64,000 nt of DNA, taken from an uncultured Thermoleophilia bacterium. GTDB taxonomy: Bacteria; Actinomycetota; Thermoleophilia; UBA2241. Location: positions 128,001 to 192,000 of the forward strand of contig CAVPCT010000005.1 in assembly GCA_963702475.1 (NCBI GenBank), written 5' to 3'. Positions 1-2,862 of the stretch are shown piece by piece. The notes beneath the pieces were generated by a model, which ran no database searches, had not been told where the DNA came from, and saw only the letters and a program-made list of their open reading frames with translations. The first letter of the stretch is position 1; each line of letters begins with the position of its first letter. A program made the translations under genes and the position numbers.

Positions 1-163
1 GGCCCAGCCACGCGGCCGTGCCGCGCGCCCGCTGCAGCGCCCCCGGAGAGCAGCAGCTGCGGCGGTCGCTCCCCGGCCAGAGGCGCACGGTCGCCGTCTC
101 CAGCGTGCGCCCCTGCTCCACCAGCTTCAGCGCCGCGACGGCGCTGTCCACCCCGCCGCTCAG
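1..163 (-). CDS. mnmA: tRNA 2-thiouridylase MnmA, N-terminal part (runs off window; start uncertain)
   Basis: Manual translation of the minus strand gives (PKRARALVA)LSGGVDSAVAALKLVEQG...RSCCSPG, with the SGGxDS PP-loop and CCS motif of MnmA. Follows iscS-iscU. Not in the ORF track because it has no ATG/GTG/TTG before the motif. Confidence 0.9.
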   Translation of the reverse strand, partial: MSGGVDSAVAALKLVEQGRTLETATVRLWPGSDRRSCCSPGALQRARGTAAWLG

Positions 164-591
164 TGCGACGAGTGCTCGTGCTCTTTTGGGAGTGACGTCA
201 GGATCCTGGGAACGTCGTCCTCACGCCCGCTCTTGACGAGGTAGTCCTGGATCGCCAGGTGCAGTGCGTCGGCGGCGAGGTTGGAGCAGTGCATCTTGTT
301 CGGGGGCAGCCCTCCGAGCGCCTCGGCCACCGTCTTGTTGGAGATATCGGCGGCCTCGGCCAGCGTCTTGCCCATCACCATCTCGGTGACCATGCTGGAG
401 GTCGCCACGGCGGCGCCGCACCCGAAGGTCTTGAACTTGACGTCCTTGATGTGGTCGTCGTCGACGGCGATGGAGATGCGCATCACGTCGCCGCAGACCG
501 GGTTGCCGATCTGCCCGACGCCGTCAGCATCCTCGATCTCCCCCACGTTACGCGGGTTCGTGAAGTGGTCCATGACCAGGTCGGTGTACAT
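160..591 (-). CDS. iscU: Fe-S cluster scaffold IscU/NifU-N
   Basis: DHFTNPRNVG, GNPVCGD, FKTFGCG and KMHCSNL motifs with three conserved Cys. Confidence 0.95.
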   Translation of the reverse strand: MYTDLVMDHFTNPRNVGEIEDADGVGQIGNPVCGDVMRISIAVDDDHIKDVKFKTFGCGAAVATSSMVTEMVMGKTLAEAADISNKTVAEALGGLPPNKMHCSNLAADALHLAIQDYLVKSGREDDVPRILTSLPKEHEHSSH

Positions 592-594
592 ATG

Positions 595-1752
595 TCAGCC
601 TTTCGAGTAGAGCGGGCTCATGCTGCGCAGCTTGTCGACGATGGGCGGGAAGACTTCGAGGAAACCGTCGGCCTCCTCTTCGGTGTTCTCGCGGCCCAGG
701 CTCAGCCGCAGGCTGCCGTGGGCCTCCTCGGCGCCTAGACCCAACGCGAGGATGACATGGGACGGCTCGAGCGAGCCCGACGCGCAGGCCGATCCGCTGG
801 AGACCATGTAGCCGTGCGCGTCCAGCTGAAGAAGCATGGACTCTCCCTCGATGTAGCGCACGGTGAAGGCGACGTTGCCGGGCAGACGGTCGGTGGGGTG
901 TCCCAGGTACCTGACCTCGGGGATGGCGTCGAGCACACCGGCTGCCAGACGGTCGCGGAGCGCCTCAAGGCGCGAGCGGGTCTGCGACAGCTCACGCGTG
1001 GCCAGCTCGAGGGCGACGCCCAGGCCGACGATGCCGGGCACGTTCTCGGTGCCCGAACGCAGGCGCCGCTCGTGACCGCCGCCGTGCAAGATGGGCGTGA
1101 GACGCGTGCCGCGCTTCACGTACAGGGCGCCGACGCCCTTGGGGCCGTACAGCTTGTGGCCGGAGACGGTGAGCATGTCGACGCCGAGCTCCGTCACGTC
1201 GATGGGCAGAGAGCCGGCCGCCTGCACCGCGTCCGTGTGGAAGACGGCGCCGTGCTCGTGCGCGATGCGCGCCAACTTGGCGACCGGTTGCACGGTGCCG
1301 ACGACGTTGTTCGCCGCCATGATGGAGGCCAGGCGCGTGTCGTCGCGAAAGGCGGCGTCGTACGCGTCGAGGTCCACGACGCCGTACTCGTCCACCGGCA
1401 CGAAGTCCACGGCCCAGCCCAGACGGTTGAGCGCGCGCGCCGCCTCCATGACCGCCGGGTGCTCGATGGCGCTGATGATGACGTGGCCCGGCTCGAACCG
1501 CTGCAGGTACCCGAAGAGGGCGAGGTTGTCGCCCTCGGTGCCGCCGGAGGTGAACACGATCTCGCGCTCGCCGGCGCCCAGAGCGGCCGCCACCCGGGCG
1601 CGTGCCTCTTCGACGGCCGCGCGCGCCTCACGCCCGACCCGGTGCAGCTCCGACGGGTTGCCGTACTTCTCCGTGAAGTACGGCAGCATGGCCTCGAGGA
1701 CCCGGGGGTCGACCGCGGTGGTCGCGGCGTGGTCGAAGTAGACGCTGGTCAT
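595..1752 (-). CDS. iscS: Cysteine desulfurase IscS/NifS
   Basis: YFDHAATT, SGHKLYGPKG (PLP Lys), SSGSAC (catalytic Cys). ATG at 1752 overlaps the Rrf2 stop (ATGA). Confidence 0.95.
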   Translation of the reverse strand: MTSVYFDHAATTAVDPRVLEAMLPYFTEKYGNPSELHRVGREARAAVEEARARVAAALGAGEREIVFTSGGTEGDNLALFGYLQRFEPGHVIISAIEHPAVMEAARALNRLGWAVDFVPVDEYGVVDLDAYDAAFRDDTRLASIMAANNVVGTVQPVAKLARIAHEHGAVFHTDAVQAAGSLPIDVTELGVDMLTVSGHKLYGPKGVGALYVKRGTRLTPILHGGGHERRLRSGTENVPGIVGLGVALELATRELSQTRSRLEALRDRLAAGVLDAIPEVRYLGHPTDRLPGNVAFTVRYIEGESMLLQLDAHGYMVSSGSACASGSLEPSHVILALGLGAEEAHGSLRLSLGRENTEEEADGFLEVFPPIVDKLRSMSPLYSKG

Positions 1753-2162
1753 CGCGGCACTGCCTCCCGTGTGAGGTCGTCGAGGGTGATGGAGTTCAGG
1801 GCGCCGGTGATGGCGCTGTCCAGCCGACGCCACACCACGCGCGAGGCGCACGACTCGGCGCGGTCGCAGGCGCCGTCGTCCGGTACGCAGCCGACCAGGG
1901 ACAGCGGGCCCTCGAGCGCCGTCACCACATCGCCGACGGCGATGTCCGCGGCGGGGCGGCTGAGCTGGTAGCCCCCACTGACGCCCCTTGTGGCTTTCAC
2001 GAGCCCGCTCTCGCGCAACCGTGCGAGGATGCGCTCGAGGAACGGCGCGGGAATCCCCTCCCCGCCCGCTATCTCCGACAGCGGAACGGGCTTGTGGTCG
2101 TCGCGAGCAGCAAGGAACACCATGGCCCGCAAACCGTACTCACAGCGAGACGAGATCCGCAC
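1749..2162 (-). CDS. iscR: Rrf2-family regulator, IscR-like
   Basis: EYGLRAM, RGVSGGYQL, three C-terminal Cys (CVPDDGACDRAESC). GGAGG precedes the GTG at 2162. Confidence 0.85.
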   Translation of the reverse strand: MRISSRCEYGLRAMVFLAARDDHKPVPLSEIAGGEGIPAPFLERILARLRESGLVKATRGVSGGYQLSRPAADIAVGDVVTALEGPLSLVGCVPDDGACDRAESCASRVVWRRLDSAITGALNSITLDDLTREAVPR

Positions 2163-2179
2163 CTGCCCTGCCTCCACAG

Positions 2180-2204
2180 AATCCCAACTGAACTGGTCGG
2201 CATT
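2180..2204 (-). promoter_or_regulatory. IscR/Rrf2-type operator just downstream of a TACCAT -10 element
   Basis: Minus strand AATGCCGACCAGTTCAGTTGGGATT is an imperfect inverted repeat resembling the IscR type-1 consensus ATASYYGACTRWWWYAGTCRRSTAT. Confidence 0.65.
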
Positions 2205-2308
2205 ATGGTACCACGGGCCGCAGGCCGGTCAAACGGCGCGCACATGCAACGCTGGGGACGCCAGAGTGGAGAGACAGGAGCGGAGGGTGTGAGCGGCGCG
2301 GGTGGCGG

Positions 2309-2845
2309 TCAGAGACCGCGCACGGCGTTGGCGACGACCTGCTCCATGACCTTGCGACCGATCCAGCCCGTGTACAGCTGCGCCACGTCGCCGTTGCCAC
2401 GGATCACGGCCAGGATGGGCGGATTGCTCACCCTGAGCTGCTGAAGCGTGTCGCCCAGCTCGCTGGTCTTGTGCGCCTCGAAGTCCAGGAAACGGCTGTC
2501 GGCGGCGTACTGCTTCTTGACCGCGTTGAACGACTCGAGCATCTGCATGTCGTCGGCGGCGCCGTCGACGTACACCAGCAACACGATGCCCCGCTGCTCG
2601 TTGAGCGGATCGGCGATGAAGTCGGGCGTCTCGTCGGTGGGCACCAGCGTGAGCGGCGCGTAGCCCGTCATGCCGTAGCTGCTGACGACGTTGTACGACG
2701 CGGGGGCCGGAAGCTGCGGAGCCGCGGGGGCGGTGGTGTCGGCCAGGACCCGCACGGCGACGACGCCACCGAACAGGACGGCCCCCACGGCGAGGATCAC
2801 CATCGCCGTCAGCAGGAACGCTCTGTTCCGCCTGAGGATGCCCAT
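2309..2845 (-). CDS. Membrane-anchored hypothetical protein, possible Cys-less thioredoxin-like fold
   Basis: N-terminal hydrophobic helix; C-terminal LRVSNPPILAVIRGNGDVAQLYTGW resembles the Trx cis-Pro/beta-hairpin; strong RBS. Confidence 0.6.
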   Translation of the reverse strand: MGILRRNRAFLLTAMVILAVGAVLFGGVVAVRVLADTTAPAAPQLPAPASYNVVSSYGMTGYAPLTLVPTDETPDFIADPLNEQRGIVLLVYVDGAADDMQMLESFNAVKKQYAADSRFLDFEAHKTSELGDTLQQLRVSNPPILAVIRGNGDVAQLYTGWIGRKVMEQVVANAVRGL

Positions 2846-2862
2846 GCCCCCCTCCAAAGAAA

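Follow-up and report, generated by a model that had tools for sequence, protein, structure and literature searches.

A predicted programmed -1 frameshift at a conserved slippery heptamer between iscU and mnmA in an uncultured Thermoleophilia bacterium

In a 64,000-nucleotide stretch of one contig of an uncultured Thermoleophilia bacterium (hereafter the window), the scaffold gene iscU runs into mnmA, which encodes a tRNA 2-thiouridine synthase and has no start codon of its own. From the layout and conservation of this junction, a programmed -1 ribosomal frameshift very probably yields two products: IscU on its own, 143 aa long, and a fusion of IscU with MnmA of about 480 aa. The initial annotation had put forward such a frameshift, and comparison with relatives favored it: relatives in the genus keep both the heptamer and the frame offset, A_AAA_AAA takes the place of the heptamer in sister genera, the site is lost in one genome (G061), selective constraint switches frame at the heptamer, and in-frame fused homologues exist elsewhere. 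This comparative support is unusually clean, as it includes a pair of heptamers that can replace each other, a natural control in which the site is lost, and in-frame fused homologues. To our knowledge, few programmed -1 frameshifts have been described in cellular, non-mobile bacterial genes. We found nothing in published full texts on frameshifting with mnmA, iscU, NifU or thiouridylase, and these terms were absent from the accessible main text of two large recoding surveys and reviews. The iscU-mnmA site would most likely represent a new bacterial case.

Anatomy of the iscU-mnmA junction

The genes of the cluster and the features of the junction are listed in Table 1. In the sequence, the desulfurase gene starts at ATG 1752-1750, with GGGAGG ahead of it. 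The NifU_N domain (Pfam PF01592) occupies IscU residues 1-121, and the IscU translation contains three Cys motifs, GNPVCGD, FGCGAA and HCS, which we take to be the ligand motifs of the scaffold. The variable tail that follows NifU_N, where column entropy was raised in all three phases over -42..0 in the aligned genus loci, would serve as the linker in the predicted fusion.

Table 1. Coordinates in the window of the cluster genes and junction features
Feature	Position	Strand	Remarks
Gene of an Rrf2-family regulator, leading the cluster	1749..2177	-	Pfam PF02082, E 6.2e-39; from the ORF list
Class-V aminotransferase (NifS/IscS-like cysteine desulfurase) gene	595..1752	-	Pfam PF00266, E 1.2e-91
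iscU, 143 aa	160..591	-	ATG at 591, stop TGA 162-160; Pfam PF01592, E 1.7e-50
TGA closing the mnmA frame	221..223	-	20 codons 5' of the S in SGGVDS
mnmA frame from the shift site onward (PKRARALVALSGGVDS...)	1..190	-	continues past the window start
Slippery heptamer C_CCA_AAA	184..190	-	phase of the iscU frame; mnmA frame reads CCC AAA after a -1 slip
G directly 3' of the heptamer	183..183	-	invariant; also after the A_AAA_AAA variant and at the genome's second site
Candidate stimulatory hairpin CUCGUCGC-ACUGA-GCGGCGGG	152..172	-	11 nt past the heptamer; iscU stop in the loop
iscU stop TGA	160..162	-	overlaps the mnmA Leu-Ser codons (CTGAGC)
Second hairpin CAGCGCCG-UCG-CGGCGCUG	128..146	-	starts 37 nt past the last heptamer base (184)

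The window covers approximately the first 63 codons of mnmA; the remainder was taken from the same contig (L001), on which the full frame ends at G000:C5:127153, 847 nt outside the window. The gene is single-copy in this genome (G000), overlaps iscU by 30 nt in the -1 frame and remains open for 344 codons past the shift site. Read on the minus strand, TGA (223-221) is followed by GRRSQDPDVTPKRARALVALSGGVDS in the mnmA frame. Re-reading of the sequence agreed with the initial annotation that this TGA closes the frame and that no ATG, GTG or TTG precedes SGGVDS: none was found from the TGA until the GTG that encodes the V of this motif, and reading the stretch by eye revealed no other near-cognate start codon. 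The claim that C_CCA_AAA at 190-184 lies in the iscU frame (..ctC CCA AAA Gag.. at 192-181) and that a -1 slip enters the mnmA frame also holds.

Genes for tRNA-Lys(UUU) and tRNA-Pro(UGG) are present in the genome, together with one for tRNA-Lys(CUU), and AAA is a rare codon, accounting for 5.7% of Lys codons. C_CC.A_AA.A belongs to the V_VV.A_AA.R class, described as being among the most efficient in E. coli, where heptamers ending in AAA are reported to be weaker than those ending in AAG (PMC4066793). Re-pairing of tRNA-Pro(UGG) on CCC creates a U:C wobble mismatch, which, like the AAA ending, speaks against the frameshift reading. The octamer CCCAAAAG, formed by the heptamer and its 3' G, occurred once in the window versus 0.31 times expected, and at least one copy was present in 26 of 100 shuffles. 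Its occurrence alone is not improbable; its conservation and position exceed chance.

Conservation of the heptamer in the genus and family

Across the 23 aligned loci of the same genus, CCCAAAAG was invariant in every sequence, with zero entropy over 8 nt and 1.2-1.8 bits in the flanking columns. In all 22 genus loci compared for layout, the heptamer lay 30 nt ahead of the Ser codon with an identical -1 offset, the iscU stop came 28 nt past the heptamer start and the mnmA frame had no canonical start within 129 nt; 12 of these 22 loci had no canonical start anywhere in the open mnmA frame. The initial annotation had proposed comparing the junction in related genomes. mnmA was located in 50 genomes of the genus, of which 49 kept the octamer at the same place, and the only genome with an ATG start, G061, had lost the heptamer, which is replaced there by CCAGAAG. 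The G061 junction reads TAA ATG GCT TCC AGA AGA.. and encodes MASRRGRALVALSGGVDS from its own ATG.

At the homologous site of genus g15, we observed A_AAA_AAA followed by G, in the same -1 relation, in 11 of 11 loci examined, and 10 of these had no mnmA start codon within 90 nt. A_AAA_AAA was also present in single genomes of g16, g17, g18, g19, g21 and g22, which make seven sister genera with g15; in the g21 and g22 genomes the site reads C_CCA_AAA_AAA. G041 (TAATG) and G082 (GTGA) kept A_AAA_AAA although a start codon overlaps the iscU stop. From this start a separate MnmA can be produced in both, with no more than 3-4 residues ahead of SGGVDS. G086 (g20) had neither heptamer nor canonical start, the sole candidate being AGGAG with ATC, so that unorthodox initiation is not unthinkable in the family.

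We scanned further genomes for the junction pattern and found it in 62 of 79 other genomes of the family and in 0 of 321 genomes from 11 other Thermoleophilia families; a reversed-pattern control gave 2 matches in 401 genomes. In a wider scan of contig collections, 26 of the 149 matches listed had SGGVDS in frame. True iscU-mnmA junctions among the matches listed numbered 2 of these 26, L099 (an uncultured Thermoleophilia MAG) and L160, and these matches are uninformative on occurrence outside the class Thermoleophilia. A tree of IscU (29 rows, 116 columns), from which six loci failing the IscU-extraction pattern were left out, had 14 of 25 inner branches unresolved, and the order of gain and loss of the site is unreadable from it. 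In at least 67 genomes of this family, mnmA will be cut short or overlooked by gene callers; a core translation-fidelity gene would then appear to be absent from these genomes or broken in them.

These comparisons bear on readings without recoding, in which a homopolymer assembly error disrupts a true in-frame fusion or mnmA is a decaying pseudogene. We give them next to no probability. The assembly consists of 9 contigs with 6.5% contamination, and mnmA indels do occur in some relatives, e.g., a 1-nt insertion in G012. However, the identical octamer and frame offset recur in 49 genus assemblies, and mnmA is a single-copy gene, open for 344 codons, whose variation is dominated by third positions. 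Moreover, contigs of three separate studies are gap-free over 165-300; these DNA contigs start only at 165 and so reach 19 nt beyond the heptamer on that side, short of the 31 nt required for bridging. All four public runs compared consist of contigs, which show neither depth nor transcript ends, and the RNA run X15 had no cover over 151-270. The assembly indel that the initial annotation had listed as an alternative is excluded by the 49 independent assemblies together with the gap-free contigs.

A change at the RNA level would have RNA polymerase slip on the A run and add one A, so that a fraction of the mRNA encodes the fusion. The A7 runs of the sister genera would suit this reading; transcriptional realignment has been linked to poly-A runs of n>7, and the Mg-chelatase cassettes described in the same source shift more with a longer A run (PMC3711429). 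However, the run is just four A's long in this genome and in 48 other members of the genus, far below the reported slippage lengths, and every variant keeps the X_XXY_YYZ phase, which is relevant to tRNA re-pairing and not to polymerase slippage. We consider polymerase slippage very improbable.

Selective constraint changes frame at the heptamer

The frame under selection was investigated using the mean entropy of alignment columns in each phase. Over -200..-100, the values were 0.86/0.30/0.35, with the maximum at iscU third positions. Past the heptamer, they were 0.45/0.19/0.76 over +8..+30 and 0.41/0.39/0.97 over +30..+100, with the maximum at mnmA third positions in both intervals. The heptamer marks the exact point where selective constraint passes from one frame, that of iscU, to the other, that of mnmA. 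For example, the final iscU residue varies among H, L, P, R and G, while the overlapping mnmA codon remains Ala. The nine codons from the heptamer to the Ser codon showed mnmA-frame constraint.

The initial annotation had placed the first beta-strand of MnmA under the iscU tail, and the alignment to solved structures bears this out: it begins at residue K12, and K12-L20 aligns with strand 1 of the MnmA chains 9hln and 2der. The Pfam HUP-domain match starts at A16, which corresponds to profile position 3.

This segment decides between the frameshift and a separate translation of mnmA, by non-canonical initiation or by termination-reinitiation at a CUG (165-163) sharing bases with the iscU stop (CUGA). 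The product would then be M-SGGVDS... without the first strand, and the heptamer would be conserved for some other reason. Every genus locus inspected has CTG or TTG ahead of Ser, but the G of CTG is dictated by the overlapping TGA, and the g21 and g22 genomes, with an earlier iscU stop, have CTC there, which cannot start. In G041 and G082 an ATG or GTG has evolved across the iscU stop, 4-5 codons ahead of Ser, and G086 apparently needs a non-canonical start, which speaks for such initiation in the family. Against it, no purine-rich Shine-Dalgarno sequence lies 5-12 nt upstream of the CUG, and the invariance of CCCAAAAG, its replacement by A_AAA_AAA and its loss in G061 are left unexplained. 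Since the nine codons before Ser are constrained in the mnmA frame and K12-L20 aligns with strand 1, the segment is translated, which a CUG start cannot explain. We therefore regard such separate translation of mnmA as unlikely, and the CTG alternative of the initial annotation was abandoned because it would omit a beta-strand under mnmA-frame purifying selection.

The MnmA protein encoded past the heptamer has the HUP, PRC-barrel and C-terminal barrel domains (PF03054, 4.3e-52; PF20259, 1.5e-19; PF20258, 7.9e-14). It aligned with 2der over residues 14-355 (E 1.3e-55), and the SGGxDS PP-loop is present. Its NPCVACN motif aligned with NPDILCN of 2der and NPCVMCN of 9hln, and QEVCF aligned with TGICF, the position of the distal Cys. 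By these alignments, the protein is assigned to the C-type (CXXC plus distal Cys), following the classification as quoted in PMC8053098.

Candidate stimulators, predicted products and related systems

The two hairpins named in the initial annotation are present in this genome but have no covariation support. The candidate stimulatory hairpin at 172-152 appears in the MFE fold, and 91.3% of its cells were paired over 23 sequences, with 0 covarying pairs. Mismatches affected one pair in 7 of 23 sequences and another in 8 of 23, and the third codon positions of its 5' arm are invariant. The usual spacing between heptamer and stimulator is 5-9 nt, and that of this candidate is longer. The second hairpin of the initial annotation, at 146-128, was predicted by RNAalifold, also without covariation, and sits in the conserved DSAVAAL codons. 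RNAalifold on the 23 sequences gave 16 pairs in all, none compensatory. Single-sequence folds were no better than those of shuffles (z -0.1 to -1.8), and folds of 44 relatives gave z -2.7 to +1.2 against mononucleotide shuffles. An Rfam scan of window positions 1-2400 returned no element, the sole match being a chance miRNA hit with an E value of 0.76. Similarly, the AGGA that the initial annotation had noted 13 nt upstream is present in this genome but not conserved, and the relatives showed no conserved upstream Shine-Dalgarno-like site.

In the proposed mechanism, Rrf2, cysteine desulfurase, iscU and mnmA would form a single message. The majority of ribosomes translating iscU would end at the UGA (162-160) and release the 143-aa scaffold. 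A fraction would slip by -1 while the P site holds tRNA-Pro paired to CCA and the A site holds tRNA-Lys(UUU) paired to AAA; both tRNAs would re-pair, on CCC and AAA, and translation would resume in the mnmA frame. The predicted transframe product, ..LTSLPK/RARALVALSGGVDS.., comprises IscU residues 1-136 and 344 further residues, 480 aa in total. Since mnmA lacks its own start codon, this organism would obtain MnmA only through the slip, which would also set how much tRNA 2-thiouridine synthase is tethered to scaffold relative to the scaffold left free. The layout of the junction, its conservation, the constraint switch and the in-frame fused homologues are observed here; that ribosomes do the slipping, how efficiently they do so and what the fusion is for are inferred. 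The fusion would likely bring the CXXC+C-type, Fe-S-dependent MnmA beside the scaffold and its desulfurase. This bears on the debated dependence of MnmA on Fe-S clusters, as the fusion would physically hold a MnmA of the CXXC type on the IscU scaffold.

All variants of the slippery site (C_CCA_AAA, A_AAA_AAA) place AAA in the A site. In this genome tRNA-Lys(UUU) alone reads AAA, and MnmA thiolates the wobble U of this tRNA. The site is also of interest for the effect of wobble-uridine thiolation on frame maintenance, since the tRNA that reads the slippery codon is itself a substrate of MnmA. It is conceivable, though rather doubtful, that the site acts as a feedback sensor, in which low thiolation would cause more slipping, more IscU-MnmA would be made and thiolation would be restored. 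As the slip lies inside iscU, such feedback would also split the sulfur of the desulfurase between Fe-S assembly and tRNA modification. If true, this would be the first tRNA-modification enzyme set by the decoding of its own substrate tRNA, with a feedback logic comparable to that of RF2 autoregulation. For the phage lambda G/GT site in E. coli, loss of tusA, mnmA or mnmE was reported to raise -1 frameshifting and loss of iscU to lower it (Maynard et al. 2012, PMC3296357). Both sites have a slippery A-site codon read by tRNA-Lys(UUU). G/GT is a phage gene that senses host modification, whereas the shift described here would control the synthesis of MnmA itself, possibly closing a feedback loop.

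CCCAAAAG also marks a second conserved -1 junction, between genes for an AAA+ ATPase and a vWA protein, in this genome and in 10 of 10 relatives' junctions among those listed. In such pairs ("magnesium chelatase"), -1 frameshifting of up to 63% was confirmed in E. coli reporters (Antonov et al. 2013, PMC3711429). As in the pairs described there, the iscU-mnmA junction would join two adjacent cellular genes through a -1 shift at an A-rich heptamer and has in-frame fused homologues elsewhere; the published sites differ in being poly-A runs and in concerning other proteins (PMC3711429). The iscU-mnmA junction is also unlike those pairs in that the downstream gene lacks any start and encodes the enzyme that acts on the A-site tRNA.

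This arrangement can be set beside two further types of -1 site. In E. coli dnaX, a -1 frameshift at A_AAA_AAG produces tau and gamma in a fixed ratio. The motif class is discussed in PMC4066793. Both dnaX and iscU-mnmA are cellular and non-mobile and have an X_XXA_AAR heptamer read by tRNA-Lys(UUU). However, the dnaX shift truncates the protein while the shift proposed here would extend it into a second enzyme, and dnaX has a defined upstream Shine-Dalgarno site and a downstream stem-loop, where we found a candidate hairpin at most. An A-site AAA, instead of the AAG of dnaX, fits a genome that also has tRNA-Lys(CUU). In orfA-orfB of IS3/IS911-type mobile elements, the transframe fusion is the active enzyme and pseudoknot or hairpin stimulators are proven. 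The likeness to the present junction lies in an upstream ORF that ends a few codons past the heptamer and a -1 downstream ORF without efficient initiation. A_AAA_AAA and A_AAA_AAG are described as predominating at IS3/IS911-type sites (PMC4066793). Unlike these mobile elements, iscU-mnmA belongs to a housekeeping sulfur-trafficking operon.

The gene order in Bacillus subtilis is cymR-yrvO-mnmA. As in the cluster described here, mnmA stands together with the genes for an Rrf2 regulator and a dedicated cysteine desulfurase, but B. subtilis has no iscU between the desulfurase and mnmA, no overlap and no recoding. YrvO and MnmA are described as a donor-acceptor pair in that species (PMC13066941).

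In-frame NifU_N+MnmA proteins of 492-496 aa were found in three other Thermoleophilia genomes, which belong to other families, and PF01592 and PF03054 were both present in 120 of 120 homologues among those listed. IscU is colinear with the N-domain of the fusion (30% identity, E 3e-13). The domain order is the same and the linker length is similar, with NifU_N at 4-119 and HUP from 135 in L030, and NifU_N at 1-121 and HUP from approximately 140 in the product predicted here. These proteins are hard-wired, with no free IscU from that gene, whereas IscU is predicted to occur both free and fused in the present organism. Their N-domain is also degenerate, the HCS cysteine being gone in L030 and two of the three cysteines in L028, whereas all three Cys motifs are present here. 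The gene order up to an upstream thioredoxin-like gene is kept in L028 (31% identity, E 4e-16); the one L030 ORF compared gave no such match. The in-frame NifU_N-MnmA fusions are annotated simply as MnmA.

Anatomy of the iscU-mnmA junction

A four-gene cluster, defined by ORFs and Pfam matches, opens the window on the minus strand and encodes an Rrf2 regulator, a NifS/IscS-type protein, IscU and MnmA, the last being the single match in the source genome (G000) to a MnmA translation search. At the junction, the iscU-frame codons read ..ctC CCA AAA Gag CAC GAG CAC TCG TCG CAC TGA, and a -1 slip at the heptamer gives CCC AAA AGA GCA.., which is the mnmA frame. From the upstream TGA to the PP-loop motif (SGGVDS), this frame holds no ATG, GTG or TTG. 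The statements of the initial annotation on the heptamer, the frame offset and the missing start were all correct when both frames were re-read. We interpret the junction as a site of programmed -1 ribosomal frameshifting that would yield free IscU and an IscU-MnmA fusion, the predicted transframe product consisting of IscU residues 1-136 followed by 344 residues (480 aa).

Features of the iscU-mnmA region and of a second candidate site in G000
Feature	Position	Strand	Basis or remark
Rrf2 regulator	2177..1749	minus	ORF and Pfam
Class-V aminotransferase, NifS/IscS type	1752..595	minus	ORF and Pfam
iscU, 143 aa	591..160	minus	NifU_N, E 1.7e-50, residues 1-121
mnmA	past window start	minus	remainder taken from the same contig (L001)
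TGA closing the mnmA frame upstream	223-221	minus	followed by GRRSQDPDVTPKRARALVALSGGVDS
Heptamer C_CCA_AAA	190-184	minus	iscU-frame codons
Candidate hairpin CUCGUCGC/GCGGCGGG	172-152	minus	iscU stop in loop
Second -1 frameshift candidate	G000 contig C2, ~229059-229074 (L190:1001-1016)	plus	octamer, C_CCA_AAA_GCC_TGA

Conservation and exchange of the slippery site

A MnmA translation search of 40 relatives found mnmA in 39 of 41 genomes, G000 included. The junction layout was identical in all 22 same-genus loci, with CCCAAAA 30 nt before the Ser codon of SGGVDS and the iscU TGA 28 nt past the heptamer start. No canonical start was present in the mnmA frame within 129 nt in any of these loci, nor in the entire open frame in 12 of them. 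In an alignment of 23 loci, the octamer CCCAAAAG (the heptamer plus an invariant G) showed zero entropy across its eight bases, and adjacent columns reached up to 1.2-1.8 bits. A pattern search recovered the junction in 46 of the 53 other genus genomes, or 47 once G000 is counted, and in none of 35 genomes assigned to the family's other ten genera. Seven genus members lacked this pattern; four of them had no mnmA match at all (completeness, 53 to 83%), and two, G059 and G075, retain CCCAAAAG with just TTG in place of CTG before Ser. The initial annotation had proposed comparing the junction among relatives, and in these the heptamer and frame offset are indeed conserved, the octamer being present in 49 of 50 mnmA-bearing genomes of the genus. 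In the fiftieth, G061, the mnmA frame reads TAA ATG GCT TCC AGA AGA GGG.., an ordinary ATG start leading to MASRRGRALVALSGGVDS, and CCAGAAG stands at the heptamer position. The predicted slippery site is thus gone where mnmA owns a start codon.

An assembly error or pseudogene, the former suggested initially as an indel, is contradicted by this conservation and by the intact, constrained mnmA frame of 344 codons, and its probability is negligible; the junction is a real feature. Logan contigs from three separate studies span at least positions 165-300 without gaps or listed indels, which we count as weak support since they begin only 19 nt from the heptamer. In locus L024 (from G012, a 68% complete genome), a one-base insertion at column 91 of alignment A1, just past the SGGVD codons, breaks the mnmA frame, the cause being misassembly or gene decay.

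Junctions were then fetched from 32 genomes of other genera of the family (g15 to g24). A_AAA_AAA followed by G was found in the iscU frame at the homologous site, 24 nt before the Ser codon and with mnmA again in the -1 frame, in 11/11 g15 loci examined and in single genomes of g16, g17, g18 and g19; in g21 and g22, AGC_CCA_AAA_AAA_G accommodates both registers. A start codon within 90 nt was lacking in 10 of the 11 g15 loci. In most cases, g23 and g24 keep iscU and mnmA apart, with conventional GTG or ATG start codons. When the pattern was loosened to allow both heptamer types, it matched 62 of 79 other family genomes and none among 321 from 11 further families of the class; the reversed pattern, run as a control, produced 2 hits across 401 genomes. 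A functional frameshift site predicts that one canonical heptamer can be exchanged for another while the frame relation persists; neither chance overlap nor a cryptic start predicts this. Slippage of the RNA polymerase is implausible on four A's, although it may contribute in the A7 genera; overall, we consider this explanation very improbable.

Counted against the frameshift reading are two loci that retain A7 although a start codon 4-5 codons ahead of Ser overlaps the iscU stop: TAATG in L043 (G041), giving MVGLSGGVDS, and GTGA in L038 (G082), giving MIVGLSGGVDS. A separate MnmA with a very short N terminus thus seems viable, and heptamer retention is not strictly tied to the absence of a start; these genomes, which have acquired start codons, may stand midway between frameshift dependence and coupled expression. 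A further point against the frameshift reading is L054 (G086, g20), where iscU ends at a TAG 56 nt before the Ser codon, with no slippery heptamer and no ATG, GTG or TTG in the 123 open nt of the mnmA frame, the sole start-like signal being AGGAG, 8 nt and an in-frame ATC. The iscU-mnmA spacer of L040 (G102, g24) contains a long perfect inverted repeat, GCCGGCACCGTGC..GCACGGTGCCGG, and no clear mnmA start closer than a GTG 75 nt upstream. Additional loose-pattern matches on G055 contigs C119 and C181 and G006 contig C20 have different spacings (AAAAG plus 16 or 18 nt before CTGAGCGG) and may stem from contaminant bins, additional copies or fragments with indels.

A second octamer site, the proposed slippage and the frame of selection

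On the two strands of the 4.3-Mb G000 genome, CCCAAAA is found just 19 times, and two of these sites combine a long 0-frame ORF ending within nine codons with a -1 ORF of >300 codons: iscU-mnmA and a site on contig C2, outside the window. There, a MoxR-like AAA+ ATPase ends ..GCC CCA AAA GCC TGA, the -1 frame of 312 codons encodes a vWA protein, and a GC-rich hairpin lies 3' of the stop. Starting from the heptamer, the vWA-frame protein was detected in 16 of 18 genomes sampled from the genus and in none of 13 from other families. CCCAAAAG is followed by TGA one codon later in G000 and in 10/10 relatives' vWA junctions listed; the -1 frame continues with a conserved PKSLS..LRHxGRVEVRGLP, ahead of which several genomes have no start codon. 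This junction resembles the "magnesium chelatase" AAA+/vWA frameshift family, confirmed in reporters (PMC3711429). Its occurrence at two junctions shows the octamer to be a recurring, putative recoding signal in the genus.

Genes for tRNA-Pro(UGG), tRNA-Lys(UUU) and tRNA-Lys(CUU) are all present in G000. By reasoning from work on dnaX, when the CUU tRNA is present, A-site tRNA re-pairing can be perfect on AAA and not on AAG. AAA is rare in G000, with 1,561 AAA versus 25,860 AAG codons in a crude set of 3,525 high-GC3 frames. V_VV.A_AA.R heptamers are among the most efficient in E. coli, C_CC.A_AA.A being listed with >0.1% shift without any stimulator and C_CC.A_AA.G with a pseudoknot reaching 54% (PMC4066793). 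RNAalifold detected no covarying structure at the junction, and fold energies were not better than those of shuffles. The candidate hairpin begins 11 nt past the heptamer; in 23 sequences, 91.3% of cells form pairs, with zero compensatory changes and with mismatches in 7/23 sequences at one pair and 8/23 at another. It would explain two invariant third positions in its 5' arm. The AGGA noted initially proved specific to G000 in the alignment of relatives. A low shift efficiency would be in keeping with a tRNA enzyme of low abundance being produced from the mRNA of a scaffold that is abundant.

The frame under selection was followed by averaging column entropy by codon phase across the junction alignment. 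Upstream, entropy peaks at iscU third positions (0.86 versus 0.30 and 0.35 over -200..-100). In the final 42 nt before the heptamer, all three phases are variable (0.83/0.66/0.61), as expected for a loose linker, and from +8 on the peak lies at mnmA third positions (0.45/0.19/0.76 for +8..+30; 0.41/0.39/0.97 for +30..+100). The last iscU residue is H, L, P, R or G, and the overlapping mnmA codon is constantly Ala (GCN). Residues K12-L20 of the mnmA frame line up with SKTRVVVGM in chain 9hln, and A14-L20 pair with KKVIVGM in E. coli MnmA (2der), each being the stretch just ahead of the PP-loop; the Pfam HUP-domain match opens at A16, profile position 3. A CUG start before Ser, the other alternative named initially, would omit this strand. 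Such a start, or reinitiation, is at odds with the strand being translated and leaves the heptamer pattern unexplained, and we regard it as unlikely.

The predicted IscU-MnmA fusion

Two other families of the class include three genomes whose mnmA ORF (492-496 aa) carries an in-frame N-terminal NifU_N domain (PF01592, E 5e-17 to 5e-19). A database search with one fusion as the query returned PF01592 and PF03054 in 120/120 proteins listed, the few named ones being MnmA of Thermoleophilia, Miltoncostaeaceae or Actinomycetota MAGs. G000 IscU residues 2-117 are colinear with residues 4-119 of the fusion N-domain (30% identity, E 3e-13), and the predicted transframe product shares this architecture, with a linker of comparable length. 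Upstream of the cluster, a thioredoxin-like membrane-anchored protein (2309-2857, minus strand) has 31% identity (E 4e-16) to the gene directly upstream of an in-frame fusion, L028; no such match was obtained with the L030 ORF compared. This hints that Rrf2-nifS-iscU may sit between two genes that are adjacent in another family.

MnmA here contains NPCVACN and QEVCF, a CXXC plus C pattern, which corresponds to the Fe-S-dependent C-type in Shigi's classification as quoted in PMC8053098. Fusion would tether MnmA to a complete IscU, with a dedicated desulfurase alongside, and would put its supply of clusters or sulfur in cis. IscU and the Tus/MnmA route are rivals for IscS in E. coli, where the lambda G/GT frameshift goes up on loss of tRNA-Lys thiolation and down on loss of iscU (PMC3296357). 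Whichever heptamer variant is present, MnmA's own substrate tRNA decodes the slippery codon in the A site, which makes negative feedback on MnmA synthesis conceivable, if doubtful.

Full-text literature searches found no papers on frameshifting in mnmA, trmU, iscU or NifU, and these terms are absent from the portion examined of a review of recoding (2016) and from the main text of the GeneTack survey (2013). Programmed -1 frameshifting as a kind is well known; what is new is the gene pair iscU-mnmA, the exchange of two heptamers inside a single family and the connection of the shift tRNA with the enzyme that is made.

Elsewhere in G000 (L002, G000:C1:118621-121954), a second desulfurase-IscU pair adjoins a rubrerythrin-like gene; its iscU DNA is 74% identical to that of the window, and the IscU paralogue (268 aa) has a C-terminal extension of ~140 aa.
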